The notes under the pieces are model-generated. The model had not been told where the DNA came from, did not search any database, and worked only from the letters and a program-made list of their open reading frames with translations. Positions 6,149 to 63,993 of a stretch of 64,000 nt of DNA are shown one piece after another (the first letter of the stretch is position 1; each line of letters begins with the position of its first letter). Origin of the DNA: Armatimonadota bacterium (lineage in GTDB: Bacteria; Armatimonadota; Fimbriimonadia; Fimbriimonadales; GBS-DC); the NCBI GenBank assembly GCA_037444405.1, contig JBBIML010000017.1, positions 1 to 64,000 on the forward strand. The letters are read 5' to 3'. The translations under genes and the position numbers were made by a program.

Positions 6149-7741
6149 TCAGAACAGGTTCGGCACGGTGGGGTCAATCCACACATCGAGCAGGGTCGGT
6201 TGATCCGCCTGTAAGGCTGCTGGCAGCGCCTCTTCGAGCGCGTCGGGGCTGTCGATCCGCTGCGCCTGCACGCCCATCCCCTGCGCGATTGCCACCAGAT
6301 CGAGATGGGGCACATCCATCCCCTGCAGGCGGCTCTCCGTGCCCGGATAGAACGCCTTTGCGAAACTTTTGAGGATATTGTAGGCGCGATTGTTCAGCAC
6401 GAGGAACAGCACGGGCGCGTTTTCCTGCACCGCGCTCCAGAGCGCCTGCACCGAATACATCACGGAGCCGTCGCCAATCACGCACACCACGGGTCGGTCC
6501 GGCTGCGCCATTTTGATGCCGACGGCGGCAGGCATCGCCCAGCCCAGCCCACCGCTGGCGGAGGTGAAGTAGTCGCCTGTGGTGGGGATTCGCACAAACT
6601 CGCGCAGGCAGAGGCTGGAGGAGACCGCCTCGTCCACAATAATCGCGTTCGGAGGCAGGTGGCGGGCGAGCGTGTACAGCACGAAGAAGGCGCCCATCTG
6701 CTGGCGTGCGCGGCTCGCTTCCGAGCGGCGACGAGCCTCTTCAACCGCGCGCGAGGGCGACTGATACACGCGGGCAGGCACCTGCTCCGCCAGCCAGCAC
6801 AGCGACGCCCGAATATCACCAACGAACGCGCTGTCAGCAGGCGCGCGAGTCGCCTCCTGCGGGTCATCTGTGATCAGCATCGCGCGAACGCCCGGCGGCA
6901 ACAGCCCGCCCGGAAAGTAGGGATAGAGTAGAAAGAGCGGCGCGCCCACCACCAGCACAAAATCGTGCTGGCTCAGCGCCTGCAGCAGGCGCGGCACCGC
7001 AGGCAACAGCATGCCCGCATAAAGCGGATGGTTCGTTGGGAAGGCGAGGCGCGAGTTGATGGGCGCATGATAGACCGCGCAGCCCAGCCTCTCGGCGAGC
7101 GCGACCGCCGCAGGCACCGCGTTCGCGCCGCCCACCTTTGCACCCAGCACCAGCGCGGGATTCTGTGCAGACTCCAGCGCGCTCACCACCCGTTCCAGAC
7201 CCTGCGGCATGCCCAGCGGCTGCACTTCGCGCAGGCGCGGTGGCTCCGCAGGCGCGTCCCAGAAGTTCATCGGGATCGACACGAACACCGGTCCGCGCGG
7301 CGGCGTCAGCGCCAGATGGTACGCCTGCTCCAGCGCGTCGGGCACATCCGCAGGCTGAACCACCTCAAAGGCATATTTCGTCACGGGACGCGCCATGCCC
7401 ACCAGATCGCCCGACAGCAACGGCGCATGGAACAGATGGCGCGTGTCCTGCTGACCGCAGGTTACTATCAATGGCGCGTTGTTCTTCAGTGCCGTATACA
7501 GCATGCCAATCGCGTTCCCCAGCCCGGGCGCCACATGCAGGTTCAGCATCGCGGGCTTGCCCGACGCCTGCGCATAACCGTCCGCCATCGCCACCGCCAC
7601 GCTCTCCTGCAACGCCAGCACATACCGAACCGTGTCGGGCAACTCCACCAGAAACGGCAGCTCCGTCGAGCCCGGATTGCCGAACAGATGGCGGATGCCG
7701 CGCCGCTTCATCCACTCAAAGGTCGCCTCGCGAATGTTCAT
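6149..7741 (-). CDS. mdlC: TPP-dependent decarboxylase, benzoylformate decarboxylase family
   Basis: FGNPGSTELP, LQESVAVAMADG, NLH..GLGNA and GDGS...NN TPP motif; start placed at MNIREATF. Confidence 0.8.
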   Translation of the reverse strand: MNIREATFEWMKRRGIRHLFGNPGSTELPFLVELPDTVRYVLALQESVAVAMADGYAQASGKPAMLNLHVAPGLGNAIGMLYTALKNNAPLIVTCGQQDTRHLFHAPLLSGDLVGMARPVTKYAFEVVQPADVPDALEQAYHLALTPPRGPVFVSIPMNFWDAPAEPPRLREVQPLGMPQGLERVVSALESAQNPALVLGAKVGGANAVPAAVALAERLGCAVYHAPINSRLAFPTNHPLYAGMLLPAVPRLLQALSQHDFVLVVGAPLFLLYPYFPGGLLPPGVRAMLITDDPQEATRAPADSAFVGDIRASLCWLAEQVPARVYQSPSRAVEEARRRSEASRARQQMGAFFVLYTLARHLPPNAIIVDEAVSSSLCLREFVRIPTTGDYFTSASGGLGWAMPAAVGIKMAQPDRPVVCVIGDGSVMYSVQALWSAVQENAPVLFLVLNNRAYNILKSFAKAFYPGTESRLQGMDVPHLDLVAIAQGMGVQAQRIDSPDALEEALPAALQADQPTLLDVWIDPTVPNLF

Positions 7742-23747: not shown

Positions 23748-25472
23748 ATGGACGGCATCGAGCGGCGGTTCTGGCGGTATGTGGCGCGGCAGTGGCAACC
23801 GCTGCTGATAGCCCTGCTCTGCTCGGTGGGCGTCACCGCCATCACCGGACTCACCGCCTACCTGCTGGAGCGGGTCATCCAGTCGATGGAGTTCCGCGAC
23901 CCGACCCAGCTGAATATCATCTCGCTGACGGTGGTGGGCATCTTCGCGCTCAAGTGGTTCTTCTCCTACGGGCAGGTCTATTACCTGGCGCTGGCAGCCC
24001 AGCGAATGATGGCGCGCCTGCGTCAGGATGTGTTCGCGCACCTGCAACGGCTGCCACTGAGCTTCTTCCAGGCGCGGCAGGTGGGCGCGTTGCAGTCGAT
24101 CCTGACGAACGATGTGCCGATCCTGCAGAGCGCGGTGCTGCTCGTGCGCGATGTACTGGATGCACCCCTGCGCATCGGCGCGTTTCTGGTCTATATCTTC
24201 TATCTGAACTGGAAGCTGGCGCTGCTGGCGTGCCTCTGTCTGCCCGCGATTGCCCTGCTGATTCAGCGGCTGGGGCGCCAGATGCACCGCATCACGCACC
24301 AGACCCAGGGTTCGCTCGCGGACATCAGCGCGCTGGTGCAGGAGGCGCTATCGGGCGTGCGCGTCATCAAAACCTTCGCGATGGAAGATCGCGAGATTGA
24401 GCGGTTCGCGCGGCGCAATCAGCAGGTGTTGCACTATTCGCTGAAGGGCGAGCGGCGGCGGGCGCGCCTGCGCCCCACCGTGGAGTTCATCGGTGCGGTC
24501 AGCATCGCGCTGGTGCTCTGGTTCGGCGGTCATCAGGTCGCGTCGGGACAGATGAGTACAGGGCAGCTGATGAGCTTCCTGTTCCTGCTCCATCAGATTG
24601 CGCAGGCGGCGAACGGCGTCGGCTCCATCCAGCTCACGCGCAAGCAGGTGCGGGCGGCTGCCGAGCGCATCTTCCGCGAGGTGCTGGATGTGGAGCCGGA
24701 GCTGTACGATGCGCCCGACGCCATCGAGCTGCCCTCGCTCAAGGGACGCATCGAGTTTCGCGAGGTCTCCTTCCGCTACCCGACGGGCGAGCAGGCGCTG
24801 CGCAGAGTCTCCTTCACCATAGAGCCGGGCGAGGTGGTCGCGCTGGTGGGGCACTCAGGCGCGGGCAAAAGCACGCTGGTGGATTTGCTGCTGCGCTTCC
24901 ACACGCCGCAGGAGGGTGTTATCACCATCGATGGCTACGATCTGCGCCGCGTGCGACTGGAGAGCCTGCGCCAGCAGATTGGGGTCGTGCCGCAGCAGAC
25001 GATGCTGTTCGTGGGCACGGTCGCCGAGAACATCGCCTACGGCAAGCCCGACGCGACCCTCGCGGAGATCGAAGCCGCCGCGCGTGCCGCCCACGCGCAC
25101 GAGTTCATCGAACGCCTGCCCGCCGGCTACAAAACGCTGATTGGCGATCGGGGCGTGCAGCTCTCGGGTGGGGAGAGCCAGCGCATCGCGATTGCCCGCG
25201 CCCTGCTGCGCAACCCGCGCATTCTGATTCTGGACGAAGCAACCGCCGCGTTAGACCCCCTCTCCGAGCAGATGATCCAGCGCGTGATTGAGGAGGGGCG
25301 TGGCGTGCGCACCACGCTGATTATCGCGCACCGCTGGACGACCGTGCGATGCGCCGACCGCATTCTGGTGTTGCATCGGGGCGAGCTGATGGAGCAGGGC
25401 ACGCACGCGGAGCTGCTCGCCCGCGACGGCTACTACGCCCGCCTCTATCGCGCCGCCCAGCTGGAAGAGTAA
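23748..25472 (+). CDS. ABC exporter, fused TMD-NBD (MsbA-like)
   Basis: TM domain; GHSGAGKS, LSGGESQR and LDEAT. Confidence 0.9.
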   Translation: MDGIERRFWRYVARQWQPLLIALLCSVGVTAITGLTAYLLERVIQSMEFRDPTQLNIISLTVVGIFALKWFFSYGQVYYLALAAQRMMARLRQDVFAHLQRLPLSFFQARQVGALQSILTNDVPILQSAVLLVRDVLDAPLRIGAFLVYIFYLNWKLALLACLCLPAIALLIQRLGRQMHRITHQTQGSLADISALVQEALSGVRVIKTFAMEDREIERFARRNQQVLHYSLKGERRRARLRPTVEFIGAVSIALVLWFGGHQVASGQMSTGQLMSFLFLLHQIAQAANGVGSIQLTRKQVRAAAERIFREVLDVEPELYDAPDAIELPSLKGRIEFREVSFRYPTGEQALRRVSFTIEPGEVVALVGHSGAGKSTLVDLLLRFHTPQEGVITIDGYDLRRVRLESLRQQIGVVPQQTMLFVGTVAENIAYGKPDATLAEIEAAARAAHAHEFIERLPAGYKTLIGDRGVQLSGGESQRIAIARALLRNPRILILDEATAALDPLSEQMIQRVIEEGRGVRTTLIIAHRWTTVRCADRILVLHRGELMEQGTHAELLARDGYYARLYRAAQLEE

Positions 25473-25505
25473 CGGATGAGGTAGACTCCAGCGGGGTGAC
25501 GGGTG

Positions 25506-26480
25506 ATGGCGCAATATGTGCCTGGCGCGGTTCGCGCTTATGAGGCAGGCTGGTTCAAAGAGCGTGTGGAGGCGGCGCGAGAGCTGCTGAACGCACCCTG
25601 CCGCGTGTGTCCCCGCTACTGCAAAGTGAACCGCCTGCAGGACGAGCGTGGCGCATGCCTGATCGGGCGCTACGCGGTGGTCGCCAGCGCGTTCCCCCAC
25701 TTCGGCGAGGAAGATGTGCTGCGCGGCTGGATGGGGTCGGGCACTATCTTCATGAGCGGGTGCAACCTGCGCTGCATCTTCTGCCAGAACTACGACATCT
25801 CACAGGTGGTGCGCGGCACGCGCGTTACGCCCGAACAGCTCGCCGCGCTGATGCTCCGCCTGCAGGAACTGGGCTGCCATAACATCAACATCGTCACGCC
25901 CGAACATGCGGTGCCGCAGGTCATCGAAGCGCTCTACCTGGCAGTTCAGCGCGGACTGCGCCTGCCACTGGTCTACAACACCAGCGCGTACGATTCGCGC
26001 GAATCGCTGCAGGTGCTGGACGGGCTGGTGGACATCTATATGCCCGACTTCAAGGTGTGGACGCCGGAGAGCGCGCGACGCTACCTCAAATCCAAAGAGG
26101 ATTACGCCACCGTCGCCCGCGAATCGATTCAGGAGATGCATCGTCAGGTGGGCGACCTGCAGGTGGATGAGCTGGGGCTGGCGTATCGCGGCTTGCTAAT
26201 ACGCCACCTCGTGATGCCGGGGCTGGTGGCGGAAACCCGAGCCATCCTGAAATGGATTGCCGACACGCTGGGCGCCAACACCTATGTGAACCTGATGGCG
26301 CAATACTATCCCGCGAACAAAGTGGGGAGCGACTACCCTGAGATTAACCGCTCGGTCTATCGCGAAGAGTATCTGGAGGCGCTGGAATATGCGCAATCGC
26401 TCGGCTTGCGGCTGGATCAGCGCAGTGTTCGCGAGGGGCTGCTATTACCGTTGAGAGCCAGAGCGCTCCCGCTCAAATAA
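25506..26480 (+). CDS. Radical SAM protein, PflX-like
   Basis: CRVCPRYC, CNLRCIFCQN, DIYMPDFK and RHLVMP motifs. Confidence 0.88.
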   Translation: MAQYVPGAVRAYEAGWFKERVEAARELLNAPCRVCPRYCKVNRLQDERGACLIGRYAVVASAFPHFGEEDVLRGWMGSGTIFMSGCNLRCIFCQNYDISQVVRGTRVTPEQLAALMLRLQELGCHNINIVTPEHAVPQVIEALYLAVQRGLRLPLVYNTSAYDSRESLQVLDGLVDIYMPDFKVWTPESARRYLKSKEDYATVARESIQEMHRQVGDLQVDELGLAYRGLLIRHLVMPGLVAETRAILKWIADTLGANTYVNLMAQYYPANKVGSDYPEINRSVYREEYLEALEYAQSLGLRLDQRSVREGLLLPLRARALPLK

Positions 26481-26521
26481 AAAGGGAGCGACAGGCAAAG
26501 GAGAGCAAAACCTGCCGCTCC
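26474..26521 (-). terminator. Minus-strand intrinsic terminator
   Basis: Minus strand GGAGCGGCAGG...CCTGTCGCTCC then CTTTTTATTT; one pair is G-U on the minus strand but A-C on the plus strand. Confidence 0.65.
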
Positions 26522-26609
26522 AAAGAGAGGTGTGTAGTTGCTTGCCACCTTTTAAGACGGATAACGCCGCCAAAAAGTTCCCGCGCCCAGCCCTTTTCCA
26601 CCCCTGAAA

Positions 26610-26645
26610 GTTTCAATCCCCTGTGCAGGGGCGGTCCTTCGGGAC
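26610..26645 (-). CRISPR. Solitary CRISPR-like repeat (no array, no cas genes in window)
   Basis: Minus strand GTCCCGAAGGACCGCCCCTGCACAGGGGATTGAAAC: 36 nt, CCCCT/AGGGG hairpin, 3' ATTGAAAC handle. Confidence 0.65.
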
Positions 26646-26658
26646 CCCCTACGCGCCT

Positions 26659-26664
26659 ATTATA
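26659..26664 (-). promoter_or_regulatory. -10 box upstream of the solitary repeat
   Basis: TATAAT on the minus strand, 13 nt before the repeat. Confidence 0.6.
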
Positions 26665-26716
26665 CCCCTTTCTGAACCCGAAAATCGAGTGCCGATTCCG
26701 AACCTCATGGAACCTC

Positions 26717-26732
26717 TGGCACACAAATTGCT
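26717..26732 (+). promoter_or_regulatory. Sigma-54 (-24/-12) promoter
   Basis: TGGCAC-ACAAA-TTGCT. Confidence 0.75.
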
Positions 26733-26786
26733 TCCAATAGAGGCAGCGGGCAACGCGCCCACAACACCAGCGCAAATGAGGTCCAT

Positions 26787-26873
26787 GAGCAGGACCGGGT
26801 TCCGGAGCCTACCAGCATGCTGGTGCTGGCGACGGGGCTGGGTGGTCTGCTCCTGCGTCGCCGCAAGCAGTGA
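26787..26873 (+). pseudogene. PEP-CTERM gene remnant (sorting tail only)
   Basis: Translates EQDRVPEPTSMLVLATGLGGLLLRRRKQ*, similar to the tail of the gene at 151-807; no in-frame start between promoter and motif. Confidence 0.85.
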
Positions 26874-26882
26874 ACCCTCAAG

Positions 26883-26905
26883 AAGGTGGGGTTCAGCCCC
26901 GCCTT
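26883..26905. terminator. Hairpin between PEP-CTERM remnant and convergent protease gene
   Basis: AAGGTGGGG-TTCAG-CCCCGCCTT. Confidence 0.6.
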
Positions 26906-26909
26906 GTGT

Positions 26910-28853
26910 TTACAGCTCGTAGTTGAGCGCGACCAGATTGAACTCCAGTTGCTGTCGCCCGCGCTGGACGGTGAGTTTCAGCGGACGCCCCGGTTTCGTG
27001 TTGAGCAGACGATCGACCAGTTGCTTCTCGCTCCAGTTCGCGGGCGACTGCCCGTCGATTTTCAGGATGCGGTCGCCCGCCCTGACCCCTGCCAGATCGG
27101 CGTCGGAGAGGGGCATCACCCAGCGAATGATGAGGTCCTTGCCCTGTCGCCGCCACTGGATGCCGTAGCCCGCGTTATCGGCGGCGCGCTCGCGCTCCGT
27201 GTGTGGCTGCCACACCATCTGCTCCCGGAAATAGTTGAAAGTTATCTTGTAATGGCGCATTACTGGGATGCCCAGCAGCCCGTGCTTGCCCTTGCGCATC
27301 AGCGCAGAATCGGACGCGACCGTGCTGGCAGGCTTCTGGAAGGCGAACACGGGACCAAAACGCAACTCGCCCAGCGTCATCTTATGCAGGCGCATCACGC
27401 GCATATCGCCCGTCATGAACTCGTACTCGTCGCCCTCAAAGAACTCGCCCATTCGCTTGTACCAGTCGGCTAACTTCATCCACACGCAGGACGATTTGTC
27501 GGGTTCAAACGAGGGCGGCATCAGGTTCATCGCCGCGCCCGTGTCCACAATCATCCGAATCTGCTGCTTCTCGCCCACTCCCATCGTCACCAGAATGTGG
27601 TCGCCAAACATCTCGAAGGGGATGGCTACTCCTTTGGGCATCTCGGCGTCAGGCGGCTCGAAGGTCATCGTGCGCGTGGTGAAGTCGATGGTAATCTGGA
27701 AGGCGGAGATAATCTCGCGTCCGAGCAGTCCAATCACCTTGCGCCCGTCCACCTCATCACTGCCCAGCGGGGTGTAGTCCAGCGGACCGACGGAGAAGAT
27801 TACATCCTTGATTTCGGCGTCGCCAATCTTGACGCTTTTCGCCTTCGCGCCGTAGGCAGGCACCAGCCCGTAGACCAGCGCCAGCACATGGTCAGTTTTG
27901 GGGATGCGTTCCAGCCCCGCCTCCTTCGCGATTTTGGTATCGATCCATGAGCGCGACGCCCCCGTGTCAAAAATAATCAGATAGGGTCCCTTATCGTTGA
28001 TTTTGACCTCCACATAGAGCGAGAATCGCACCATCCGGAAGGGCACTTTAGCGGGCAGCTTCTCGCGCACAATCGGCGGTGGCTCGCATGGCGGGCGCTC
28101 AAACAGCGAATCGGGCACCTCCTTCGTGTCCAGACTGGTAAAGAACTGGTTGCGCACCTGCGTGCCGTTCAGGAACAGGCGCGTCTCGAACGGCACCAGC
28201 ACCTCGCCGGCAGGTGTCGGCACCTGCCGATAGTTGTGGTACGCCTCGAACACGCGCGACAGCTCGTCGGTCTCATAATCGACGCTCTCGTACTCCAGCC
28301 CGATGACTTGATCCTTCTCGTTGAGGTAGCAGTGAACCTTGCGGTCGGGCTTTTTGGGCAGGTTGTTGTGATGCGGCAACAGGGGCAGCTGGAAGGTGAC
28401 GCGGTAGCCCGTGCGTCCATCGGGCAGCTTGCTCTCGCCTCCGTCGATGAGCGTGGCGTCTTTATAGAGCAGGGGCAGCGCCATAAAGTCGTGGTAGCGG
28501 TCGTCGAGCAGGCTCTGCACCTCTTCCTGCGCGATGCGGGCGACCAGATAGCCCTGCTTGCGCCAGCCTTTCGTGCCGTCGAAGCCGATGATTTCAGTTT
28601 CGCCGCCGCGCTCGATCTCGGTGCGAATCTTTTCGCCTTTGCGGTAGGTGGTGATTTTCACATCGCTTTTGCCGCCGCGCTCGCTGGTGACCTCCACATT
28701 CAGGCGCACGCCTTTCGTGGCAAGCTGGGCGAACGCCTCGCCGCCATGCACCTGCAGGGCATGTTCGAAACGGGCACGGGCGGTGGTAAGGTCCGCCTGG
28801 GCGAGGTAGCCCAGAAGCCATCCCCACACAATCCCGACAGCAACCCAGCGCAT
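26910..28853 (-). CDS. Secreted double retropepsin-like aspartyl protease with C-terminal PDZ
   Basis: IFDTGAS and IVDTGAA, GLLG motifs, PDZ (AGVRAGDRILKIDG), signal peptide. Confidence 0.85.
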   Translation of the reverse strand: MRWVAVGIVWGWLLGYLAQADLTTARARFEHALQVHGGEAFAQLATKGVRLNVEVTSERGGKSDVKITTYRKGEKIRTEIERGGETEIIGFDGTKGWRKQGYLVARIAQEEVQSLLDDRYHDFMALPLLYKDATLIDGGESKLPDGRTGYRVTFQLPLLPHHNNLPKKPDRKVHCYLNEKDQVIGLEYESVDYETDELSRVFEAYHNYRQVPTPAGEVLVPFETRLFLNGTQVRNQFFTSLDTKEVPDSLFERPPCEPPPIVREKLPAKVPFRMVRFSLYVEVKINDKGPYLIIFDTGASRSWIDTKIAKEAGLERIPKTDHVLALVYGLVPAYGAKAKSVKIGDAEIKDVIFSVGPLDYTPLGSDEVDGRKVIGLLGREIISAFQITIDFTTRTMTFEPPDAEMPKGVAIPFEMFGDHILVTMGVGEKQQIRMIVDTGAAMNLMPPSFEPDKSSCVWMKLADWYKRMGEFFEGDEYEFMTGDMRVMRLHKMTLGELRFGPVFAFQKPASTVASDSALMRKGKHGLLGIPVMRHYKITFNYFREQMVWQPHTERERAADNAGYGIQWRRQGKDLIIRWVMPLSDADLAGVRAGDRILKIDGQSPANWSEKQLVDRLLNTKPGRPLKLTVQRGRQQLEFNLVALNYEL

Positions 28854-28967
28854 CTTCACAACCTCCGGGCATGATAGTACCTCGCCAGCGCGGGTGAATC
28901 CTGCCTGTTGATCTGCGACCTGTACGGGATAGCAGGCAAATCGCCTCGCGCCCCGAATCAACTCCGT

Positions 28968-63830: not shown

Positions 63831-63912
63831 TGACGACCAATGGTCATCAATGAATGGCGGTCAATGTTGACCATCGATCAACATTATACCATGGGTCAGG
63901 GGGCTTTGTCAA
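63831..63912 (-). promoter_or_regulatory. Consensus sigma-70 promoter with two downstream palindromic operator candidates
   Basis: Minus strand TTGACA (63907-63912)-N18-TATAAT (63883-63888); imperfect palindromes TGACGACCAATGGTCATCA and ATGTTGACCATCGATCAACAT. Confidence 0.8.
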
Positions 63913-63957
63913 GGGGTTGGTGAGGGTGTTCGGAAAATCCACCCAGAGGCAAGGATG

Positions 63958-63993
63958 CCCCTCACCCCTACCCTCTCTCCAGAGGGGAGAGGG
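63958..63993 (-). repeat. Intergenic copy of the palindromic element
   Basis: Reverse complement CCCTCTCCCCTCTGGAGAGAGGGTAGGGGTGAGGGG. Confidence 0.8.

Follow-up and report, generated by a model that had tools for sequence, protein, structure and literature searches.

An intact CRISPR repeat that stands alone in a chromosome, behind a promoter-like element and in front of a hairpin with a U-tract, raises the question of whether it is a regulatory RNA gene in its own right or what is left of an array. Such a unit lies on the minus strand of the stretch of DNA analyzed herein, 64,000 nucleotides of contig JBBIML010000017.1 of an Armatimonadota bacterium (hereafter the window). A sequence-only reading had proposed a non-coding transcript of about 175 nt with its own promoter and terminator, which might either load a Cas effector in trans or be the last relic of a collapsed array. 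Our answer, to which we give a probability of about 85%, is that positions 26610-26706 are an inert, zero-spacer CRISPR relic, stranded after the loss of the cas genes beside a separate small RNA gene. As a CRISPR feature, the unit is ordinary.

The genome of the window (G000; 2,683,681 bases in 40 contigs, 98.9% complete, 62% GC), of which the window's contig is C17, was compared with 60 relatives, giving 61 genomes in total. G001, G002 and G003 are congeners, and G002 is the nearest relative. A wider sample of 151 genomes, G000 counted, was spread evenly over the phylum. Among the loci numbered with L, L016 is from contig C2 of G002, and L049, L051 and L054 are metagenome contigs. Positions of the CRISPR unit and of the small RNA are window coordinates read on the minus strand.

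A CRISPR repeat behind the leader of its lineage

The layout proposed by the sequence-only reading was recovered in every position: TATAAT (26659-26664) is followed by 13 nt (26646-26658) and then by the 36-mer (26610-26645). The 36-mer had one match in the window at up to 3 mismatches, and none of 100 shuffles had any. G000 as a whole has a single copy, and low-stringency blastn returned elsewhere only fragments, the longest exact one being 14 nt; two partial matches on contig C7 near 52 kb lie within coding sequence and were rejected as chance. At the limit of 3 mismatches, the repeat was present in 2 of the 61 genomes, with the one copy in G000 and two copies 70 nt apart on contig C31 of G002.

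The homology extends beyond the repeat. When positions 25500-28000 were compared with the three congeners using blastn, 26610-26706 matched as one block, at 79-93% identity, the arrays at G002:C31 and G002:C2 and three places in G001, and each of the G001 matches was followed by more copies of the repeat at a spacing of 67-83 nt. The repeat itself is 35/36 identical to that of the two-repeat array at G002:C31 and 31/36 identical to those of four G001 arrays, all of which carry a 5-mismatch variant. Counted at up to 8 mismatches, the G001 arrays hold 5 repeats (C22), 3 repeats (C3), at least 5 (C35, reaching a contig end) and at least 6 (C25, also reaching a contig end), and those of G002 hold two repeats (C31) and a degenerate pair (C2). 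The array at G001:C35 adjoins an 897-aa RT-Cas1 fusion. In an alignment of these loci (alignment A1), about 62 nt of leader are held in common, including an invariant stretch around TATAAT; the distal part of the leader, about 60 nt common to the G001 and G002:C31 arrays, is gone from the window. The unit with its leader thus corresponds to the leader-proximal ends of multi-repeat arrays in the congeners, as expected from the proposal of a collapsed array.

The same family was also observed in wider searches. Among one genome per species from 185,579 species, it was confined to records with the titles "Bacterium HR15" and "MAG: Armatimonadota bacterium". In metagenome contigs, ten loci carry it, with one to eight repeats behind the same leader (leader homology at 9 of the 10); the window repeat is 34/36 identical to the repeats of the metagenome arrays, and the terminal repeats of these arrays are degenerate at the 3' end (...GATTGTGCG and ...GATTGAGCC). 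One of these loci, L049:1501-1600, is a second solitary leader-plus-one-repeat unit from another organism, followed by a GC-rich palindrome (GGTAGGGGCGCACGGCCGTGCGCCCCTACC) and unrelated sequence; zero-spacer units recur in this lineage. Because it is homologous to real arrays, the unit in the window is, on sequence grounds, a genuine CRISPR repeat with a genuine leader, far beyond chance. The 36-nt unit is thus CRISPR-derived, in the transcribed orientation that had been claimed for it, and the check proposed at the time, a search of the 36-mer through the genome and its relatives, returned a single copy in G000 and similar repeats in G002, G001 and the metagenome arrays.

The leader promoter comprises TATAAT, an 18-nt spacer and a weakened -35 element, TCGATT (26683-26688), which is TTGATT in G002 (alignment A1). 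A consensus scan of 26300-27000 called no promoters and no terminators. It was silent at the leader promoter because TCGATT matches the consensus at 3 of 6 positions, under the threshold of the tool, and at the downstream hairpin because the 17-nt loop exceeds the limit of 8. At the repeat, Rfam returned CRISPR-DR matches only below threshold (18.9 and 15.8 bits, against a gathering score of 39), and the repeat region shows two small internal hairpins.

No second repeat was observed. Ungapped matches to the repeat within the downstream 170 nt reach 15/36 (42%) at best, a value attained by 1854 of 2000 shuffles. The weak 14/36 match previously pointed out at 26537-26572 is correct as arithmetic, but as a vestigial second repeat it is at the level of chance, and the site is the -10 box and 5' end of the small RNA described below. 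Within the flanking 100 bp, there is no partial copy of more than 70% identity, the downstream side reaching 42% at best and the upstream side being leader. Functional CRISPR arrays are recognized by two or more direct repeats with unique spacers between them, and this locus has one repeat. Contigs from two further runs in the same study, which cover 26286-26769 and 26478-26696 with 0 differences, show the single repeat as well; therefore, this state is not an assembly artefact and is fixed there, within one study that is not independent of the source of G000. A metagenome scan with a 44-nt stretch of the junction and promoter gave 0 matches.

Several other observations concern repeats in these genomes. 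A dispersed REP-like element of about 90 nt, with palindromes GGGAGAGGG and CCCTCTCCC, occurs at 63906-63993 of the window and at dozens of sites genome-wide, and copies flank the G002 arrays. A simple array finder flagged a tandem repeat at C27:36384-36620, which has four copies of a GC-rich unit of about 68 nt and no unique spacers, and was rejected as CRISPR. A weak Rfam match to mir-1238 at 25380-25461 (minus strand; 28.3 bits against a gathering score of 81) lies inside an ABC transporter coding region and was taken as chance. At L051:1434-1640 (2 repeats) and L054:1434-1860 (5 repeats), arrays immediately precede, in the same orientation, the orthologue of the ABC transporter gene of the window (23748-25472). 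This arrangement hints that an array has long been resident in the neighbourhood of this gene, with an inversion separating the two arrangements.

Table 1. Positions of the CRISPR unit, the small RNA gene, the cas remnant and the flanking genes (window coordinates unless a contig is named)
Feature	Positions	Strand	Basis or remark
Intact 36-nt CRISPR repeat, GTCCCGAAGGACCGCCCCTGCACAGGGGATTGAAAC	26610-26645	-	Exact match; single copy in window and genome
Would-be Cas6 5' handle, ATTGAAAC (last 8 nt of repeat)	26610-26617	-	
Repeat-proximal part (about 62 nt) of CRISPR leader	26646-26706	-	Homology to leaders in G001 and G002
Junction between repeat and small RNA promoter, 27 nt, not a spacer	26583-26609	-	3 changes at G002:C22; no significant match elsewhere in the genome
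ECF-sigma-like promoter of small RNA	26552-26582	-	GGGAAC (26577-26582), 17 variable nt, CGTCTTAA (26552-26559)
Unpaired 5' part of small RNA (predicted start), GGCAAGCAACUACACACCUCUCUUU, C/U-rich, anti-Shine-Dalgarno-like	26522-26546	-	Alignments
Terminator of small RNA	26475-26521	-	10-bp stem (26512-26521 / 26485-26494), 17-nt loop, U-tract
cas6 (6599-7426, intact) and cas8-like gene cut at 357 codons	G000:C28:6599-8533		Aminotransferase gene next, on the other strand
Putative PEP-CTERM-type gene remnant abutting the leader; context, not part of the CRISPR unit	26709-26875	+	
Radical SAM gene, convergent with small RNA	25503-26480	+	PF04055, E 8.6e-15; within region 96% identical to G002:C22
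Aspartyl-protease/PDZ gene, upstream flank	26910-28961	-	PF13650, PF13180; orthologues in G001-G003

A separate, predicted small RNA gene downstream of the repeat

The apparent terminator belongs to another gene. The hairpin begins about 90 nt after the repeat, has a 17-nt loop that holds the invariant motif UUUGCUCUCCUUU, and is followed by the U-tract CTTTTTATTT at 26475-26484. Its stem contains G-U pairs and, as the sequence-only reading had noted, closes fully on the minus strand only. Positions 26471-26582 match G001:C58 (92%) and G003:C155 (88%) at places that have no CRISPR repeat, after an unrelated gene in G001 and in another intergenic region in G003. In total, the module was found in 34 of the 61 genomes, including 28 of the 28 genomes of the family, again without the repeat. 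The usual complement of a genome is one full-length copy and a paralogue that has only the hairpin in common with it.

The alignments show a constant order: GGGAAC, 17 variable nucleotides, CGTCT, an unpaired AGCAAGCAACUACACACCUCUC, the hairpin with loop UUUUGCUCUCCUUUG and the U-tract. Of the 25 unmasked orthologue rows, all have GGGAAC and 24 have CGTCT, and the 17 nt between them vary. In a set of 29 sequences, all 10 stem pairs are kept throughout, and four of them change on both sides. Positions 26475-26582 are thus, judging from conservation and covariation, an independent gene for a small RNA of about 70 nt with its own predicted promoter and terminator. The claims that the repeat has its own terminator and is followed by about 37 nt of spacer-like sequence therefore fall, as the region in question is a separate promoter and gene conserved throughout the family.

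A covariance model built for this RNA (R1) matches 26473-26559 at 104.7 bits and finds the family in 27 of the 151 phylum genomes counting G000 (26 of the 150 others). Seven distant matches were read; six of them keep the loop on quite different stems, most with a 5' stretch CACCUUCCUUCC like that of the paralogue of G000 on contig C23. This paralogue (G000:C23:31855-31939, minus strand) has an ATAAT-type -10 element, the 5' stretch CACCUUCCUUCC, another stem and the same UUUGCUCUCCUUU loop, and it is this form that recurs across the phylum. The same runs also contain high-depth contigs that belong to other organisms; these match at the hairpin only, and their loose ends share the 5' stretch GCAAGCARCTACACAC. 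Rfam had no match at the small RNA. The literature searches found no regulatory RNA described for Armatimonadota. These results make the small RNA a candidate new family, conserved in part of Armatimonadota.

Promoters for ECF sigma factors carry the signature AAC ... CGT, with the two elements 16-17 nt apart. The arrangement GGGAAC-N17-CGTCT fits this signature, which is suggestive of an ECF-type promoter. The strict motif GGAACTT-N14-16-CGTCT is unique in G000. Of the 21 sigma-70-family genes in this genome, one stands in a sigma/anti-sigma operon (an ECF sigma factor with a zinc-finger anti-sigma factor, G000:C7:~217767-218900) that has two tandem sites of like architecture just upstream, both of the form GGAAC-N17-CGT(C/A)TAA, namely TGGAAC-N17-CGTCTAAG and GGGAAC-N17-CGTATAAC (~217.77-217.86 kb). 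This operon is a candidate regulator of the small RNA, and one subfamily of the RNA appears to be wired to an ECF-type promoter. Several sites of a looser motif lie just upstream of start codons, one of them before an ORF beginning MAKVVGIDL (C8:~95080, minus strand), which we take to be DnaK-like. A like site also occurs at C9:98353 (minus strand).

Two results count against parts of this picture. One of the seven distant R1 matches is a plain terminator without the loop motif; therefore, the phylum count includes some false positives. The looser promoter motif occurs at 15 sites genome-wide compared with 8 in a reversed-sequence control, which is weak for the ECF assignment. From the anatomy of the small RNA and by analogy with sigma-E-dependent RNAs, we propose that it most likely pairs its C/U-rich regions with the ribosome-binding sites of mRNAs under the control of an alternative (stress) sigma factor.

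Breakpoint, loss of the cas genes and competing explanations

The orthologous locus in the nearest relative bears on how the unit came to lie where it does. Contig C22 of G002 is 96% identical to the window from 24001 to 26621. At the junction, the repeat is represented by an 11-nt stub alone (GGGATTGTCGC), after which come the 27-nt junction (with 3 changes) and the downstream module as in the window; the leader and the 5' two-thirds of the repeat are absent, and upstream of the stub lies an outer-membrane-like gene unrelated to them. Contig C24 of G002 matches the window from 30130 down to about 26706 and diverges exactly at the leader start (...GAGGTTCCATG / AGGTTCGGAATCGG...). Past both points, G002 runs into regions found on contigs C8 and C13 of G000. 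Positions 26622-26705 (84 nt) therefore form a block of their own at a rearrangement breakpoint. The sequence-only reading had expected this comparison to show either a full array or a conserved single unit; the orthologous locus could be found, and it holds neither, but the stub alone.

Around the unit lie conserved genes of the chromosome (fmt-like, ABC transporter, radical SAM, protease and LD-carboxypeptidase), the flanks are syntenic in G002, and no phage or plasmid genes were found among these neighbours. Next to the leader, the plus-strand frame at 26709-26875 ends in ...VPEPTSMLVLATGLGGLLLRRRKQ and a stop codon, has no start codon before its last 19 codons (an ATG at 26707 is in another frame) and had no Pfam match. 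At about 26787, 552 nt of G002 are gone from the window. This frame, presumably of PEP-CTERM type, is probably a gene remnant beside the breakpoint.

The cas genes tell the same story of loss. G001 has a complete type III-A module (Csm1-Csm5 and accessory genes), a Csx10/Csx7 (III-D-like) module and RT-Cas1. G002 has cas6, a cas8-like gene, cas5b, cas3, cas4, cas1b and cas2; cas7 was not identified in its ORF set and there is a 630-nt gap between ORFs, and the operon is not claimed to be intact. It also has a stump of a III-A module (a truncated csm4, csm5 and a TM1812-family gene), with a remnant of leader and degenerate repeats directly against it. At that site (G002:C2; L016:9756-9935, ORFs from 9886), the leader and degenerate repeats abut the 5'-truncated csm4, and it looks as if the unit marks the deletion that removed cas10, csm2 and csm3.

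In G000, the family searches returned 0 Cas1 matches (2 in G001, 1 in G002 and 1 in G003), 0 RAMP matches (6, 1 and 3) and a single Cas6 match, on contig C28 (1 in each congener). Searched in G000 alone, the Cas5 and DevR/Cas7 families gave 0 matches, Cas3 core gave three helicase matches below the cut-off, and Csm1 gave one 29-bit HD-domain match, also below the cut-off. No type III genes were found in this genome by family searches and tblastn, and no Cas1 or Cas2 homologues by the Cas1 family search and by tblastn with the cas ORFs of the congeners. The contig of the window had no cas family match, and the earlier remark that the window contains no cas gene is in keeping with the searches of the whole genome. 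When all ORFs from the cas loci of the congeners were used as tblastn queries, G000 yielded only cas6 (96% identity) and residues 1-387 of the 487 encoded by the next gene. At the nucleotide level, the homology with the G002 operon breaks off about 1.05 kb into this gene after cas6. On this alignment, the edge of a deletion is visible that removed the rest of the type I operon of G000 after cas6 and the truncated cas8-like gene. A residual array persists at the start of contig C26 (1-165), with a 30-nt repeat (GTTTCAATCCC... on the plus strand) in at least 3 copies, spacers of 36-37 nt and a leader-like region after it. Its repeat differs from the 36-mer but has the same ...GGGATTGAAAC 3' end, and a contig break masks the size of the array.

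Taken together, the genus forms a decay series, from G001 (I-B, III-A, III-D-like, RT-Cas1 and several arrays) through G002 (a truncated III-A and arrays of two repeats or degenerate ones) to G000 (cas6 and one repeat), and its leader/repeat units sit at deletion and rearrangement breakpoints. Herein, we propose that the relic in the window would consist of the promoter-bearing proximal 62 nt or so of a leader and one intact 36-nt repeat, and would have arisen when the several near-identical leader/repeat units once carried by the lineage recombined with one another or underwent deletion. The rest of the array and the distal leader would have been lost at the chromosomal rearrangement breakpoint. 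The lineage would since have lost its adaptation and interference genes, leaving cas6, the truncated cas8-like gene and the residual type I-B-type array. Since no effector genes were found, there would be nothing for the unit to guide, and it is most likely without function as CRISPR. Should the weakened promoter in the leader fire, transcription would run through the small RNA gene to the terminator of the latter, and an RNA of about 175 nt would arise by accident of position.

Several points weigh against this explanation. First, the cas6 gene is intact, with an omega of 0.11 against G002, compared with 0.07-0.13 for housekeeping neighbours, and Cas6 could therefore still cut the repeat in the window. 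Second, the repeat is fully canonical, without decay, and the -10 element is a perfect TATAAT; this could reflect a recent origin or some retained use. Third, an assembly of 40 contigs is not closed, and a cas locus lying wholly in a gap is formally possible. Fourth, the outgroups G001 and G003 share neither junction, and because of this the direction of the rearrangement and the order of events are not polarised.

The first two of these points are those expected if the relic had been exapted, with the leader promoter and a Cas6-cleavable repeat giving the small RNA a second, housekeeping-sigma expression and a longer isoform with a Cas6-made 5' end at 26617 (AUUGAAAC). Exaptation would also account for the retention of cas6 alone; no terminator separates the repeat from the small RNA, so that read-through would be expected; and the single-unit state is fixed in three runs of one study. 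However, in G002 the same small RNA stands with neither the leader nor a usable repeat before it, and all 28 family genomes express it, if at all, from its own promoter. The -35 element has been weakened from TTGATT to TCGATT, and a recent deletion explains the retention of cas6 equally well, the truncated neighbour being still an open frame of 357 codons. We consider exaptation unlikely. If true, it would be a case in which a CRISPR processing enzyme and a repeat were recruited to mature an ordinary regulatory RNA.

A crRNA-like guide of the CreA or mini-array type, which would load a Cas effector and repress a gene of partial complementarity, is very improbable. A solitary repeat with an upstream promoter-like element does resemble the ectopic repeats of such systems (PMC8501985, PMC9458426 and PMC10120712, cited here, as are the papers below, from excerpts). 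However, the 98.9%-complete genome yielded neither an effector nor an adaptation gene, and its type I operon ends after cas6, which leaves the proposed loading in trans without a partner. The unit is on C17, away from any cas locus, with cas6 on C28; there is no second repeat-like element; and the closest relative, G002, has lost the unit. The presumed spacer is the 27-nt junction together with the conserved promoter of another gene. In a self-target search, which short seeds would escape, the matches of a 33-mer in G000 are at chance level for 62% GC (at best 14 nt exact, or 21 nt with 2 mismatches at E 0.03).

The other architecture suggested earlier, an RNA anti-CRISPR (a Racr-like solitary repeat unit) that would sequester Cas proteins for a mobile element, has little to commend it beyond a truly solitary repeat placed just after a promoter-like element, as in the viral solitary repeat units described in the excerpted report (PMC10651486). 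The unit is not on a mobile element, having conserved chromosomal neighbours and flanks syntenic in G002; the repeat was present in 0 viral contigs; in the host, no matching CRISPR-Cas system is left for an inhibitor to act on; and the leader is that of the lineage's own arrays. We regard this explanation as highly improbable. It is also barely credible that the unit is an empty but competent array awaiting spacers. Versions with one repeat or one spacer behind a leader do recur (L049, G002:C31, L051 and L052), but no Cas1 or Cas2 homologue was found in G000 and the distal half of the leader is gone. A dispersed REP-type palindrome of the GTAG kind, or a chance likeness to a CRISPR repeat, might be suspected from the two small internal hairpins and the abundance of GC-rich REP-like elements in G000, but is next to impossible for a sequence that is single in the genome and shares 97 nt of homology, leader included, with real arrays in G001 and G002.

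Comparison with known systems

The explanation preferred here, a zero-spacer relic beside an unrelated gene, carries a caution: even a perfect repeat that stands alone between what look like a promoter and a terminator can be a product of decay that borrows its "spacer" and "terminator" from a neighbouring gene, and only the comparison of relatives and the inventory of cas genes separate such a relic from CreA-like or Racr-like RNAs. The by-product of the analysis may be more useful than the relic itself, being a candidate small RNA family with an invariant C/U-rich loop in part of Armatimonadota.

Orphan or degenerate CRISPR arrays are arrays left behind after the loss of cas genes. The unit in the window is like them in that the leader and repeat are homologous to functional arrays of relatives, the cas genes have been deleted with a visible deletion edge, the unit sits at a recombination breakpoint, and G002 shows further decay to an 11-nt stub. 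It is unlike them in having zero spacers and one still-perfect repeat, and in lying by accident upstream of, and co-oriented with, an unrelated small RNA gene; therefore, the relic looks like a self-contained transcription unit.

According to the excerpts of PMC10651486, the solitary repeat units of viruses (Racrs) are found directly downstream of a promoter on viruses and plasmids, and about 83% of them match the CRISPR subtype of the host. The unit shares with them a single repeat with no partial repeat within 100 nt, a position right after a promoter-like element and the absence of cas neighbours. In contrast, it is chromosomal, carries the host lineage's own leader and is found in a host without a cognate system, and there are 0 viral copies. 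CreA and regulatory mini-arrays, as far as the excerpts describe them, are found at cas loci or in their vicinity, usually with two (degenerate) repeats that enclose a short spacer partly complementary to a cas or toxin promoter, and they need an effector (PMC10120712, PMC8501985, PMC9458426). An ectopic repeat outside a normal array is what the unit has in common with them, whereas it has no cas locus nearby, no second repeat and no effector found in G000. The excerpts of PMC10120712 also propose that standalone repeats arise readily via recombination and array truncation, and the locus in the window shows such an origin.

The small RNA module invites a different comparison. MicA and RybB are sigma-E-dependent envelope-stress small RNAs of enterobacteria, as given in the excerpts of PMC1804206 and PMC1851643. 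The module has no sequence relationship with them, belongs to another phylum and carries its C/U-rich motif also in the invariant loop of the terminator. Nevertheless, it is predicted here to share their general design, namely, a short RNA with its own promoter of an alternative-sigma type, an unpaired 5' region for pairing and an intrinsic terminator.

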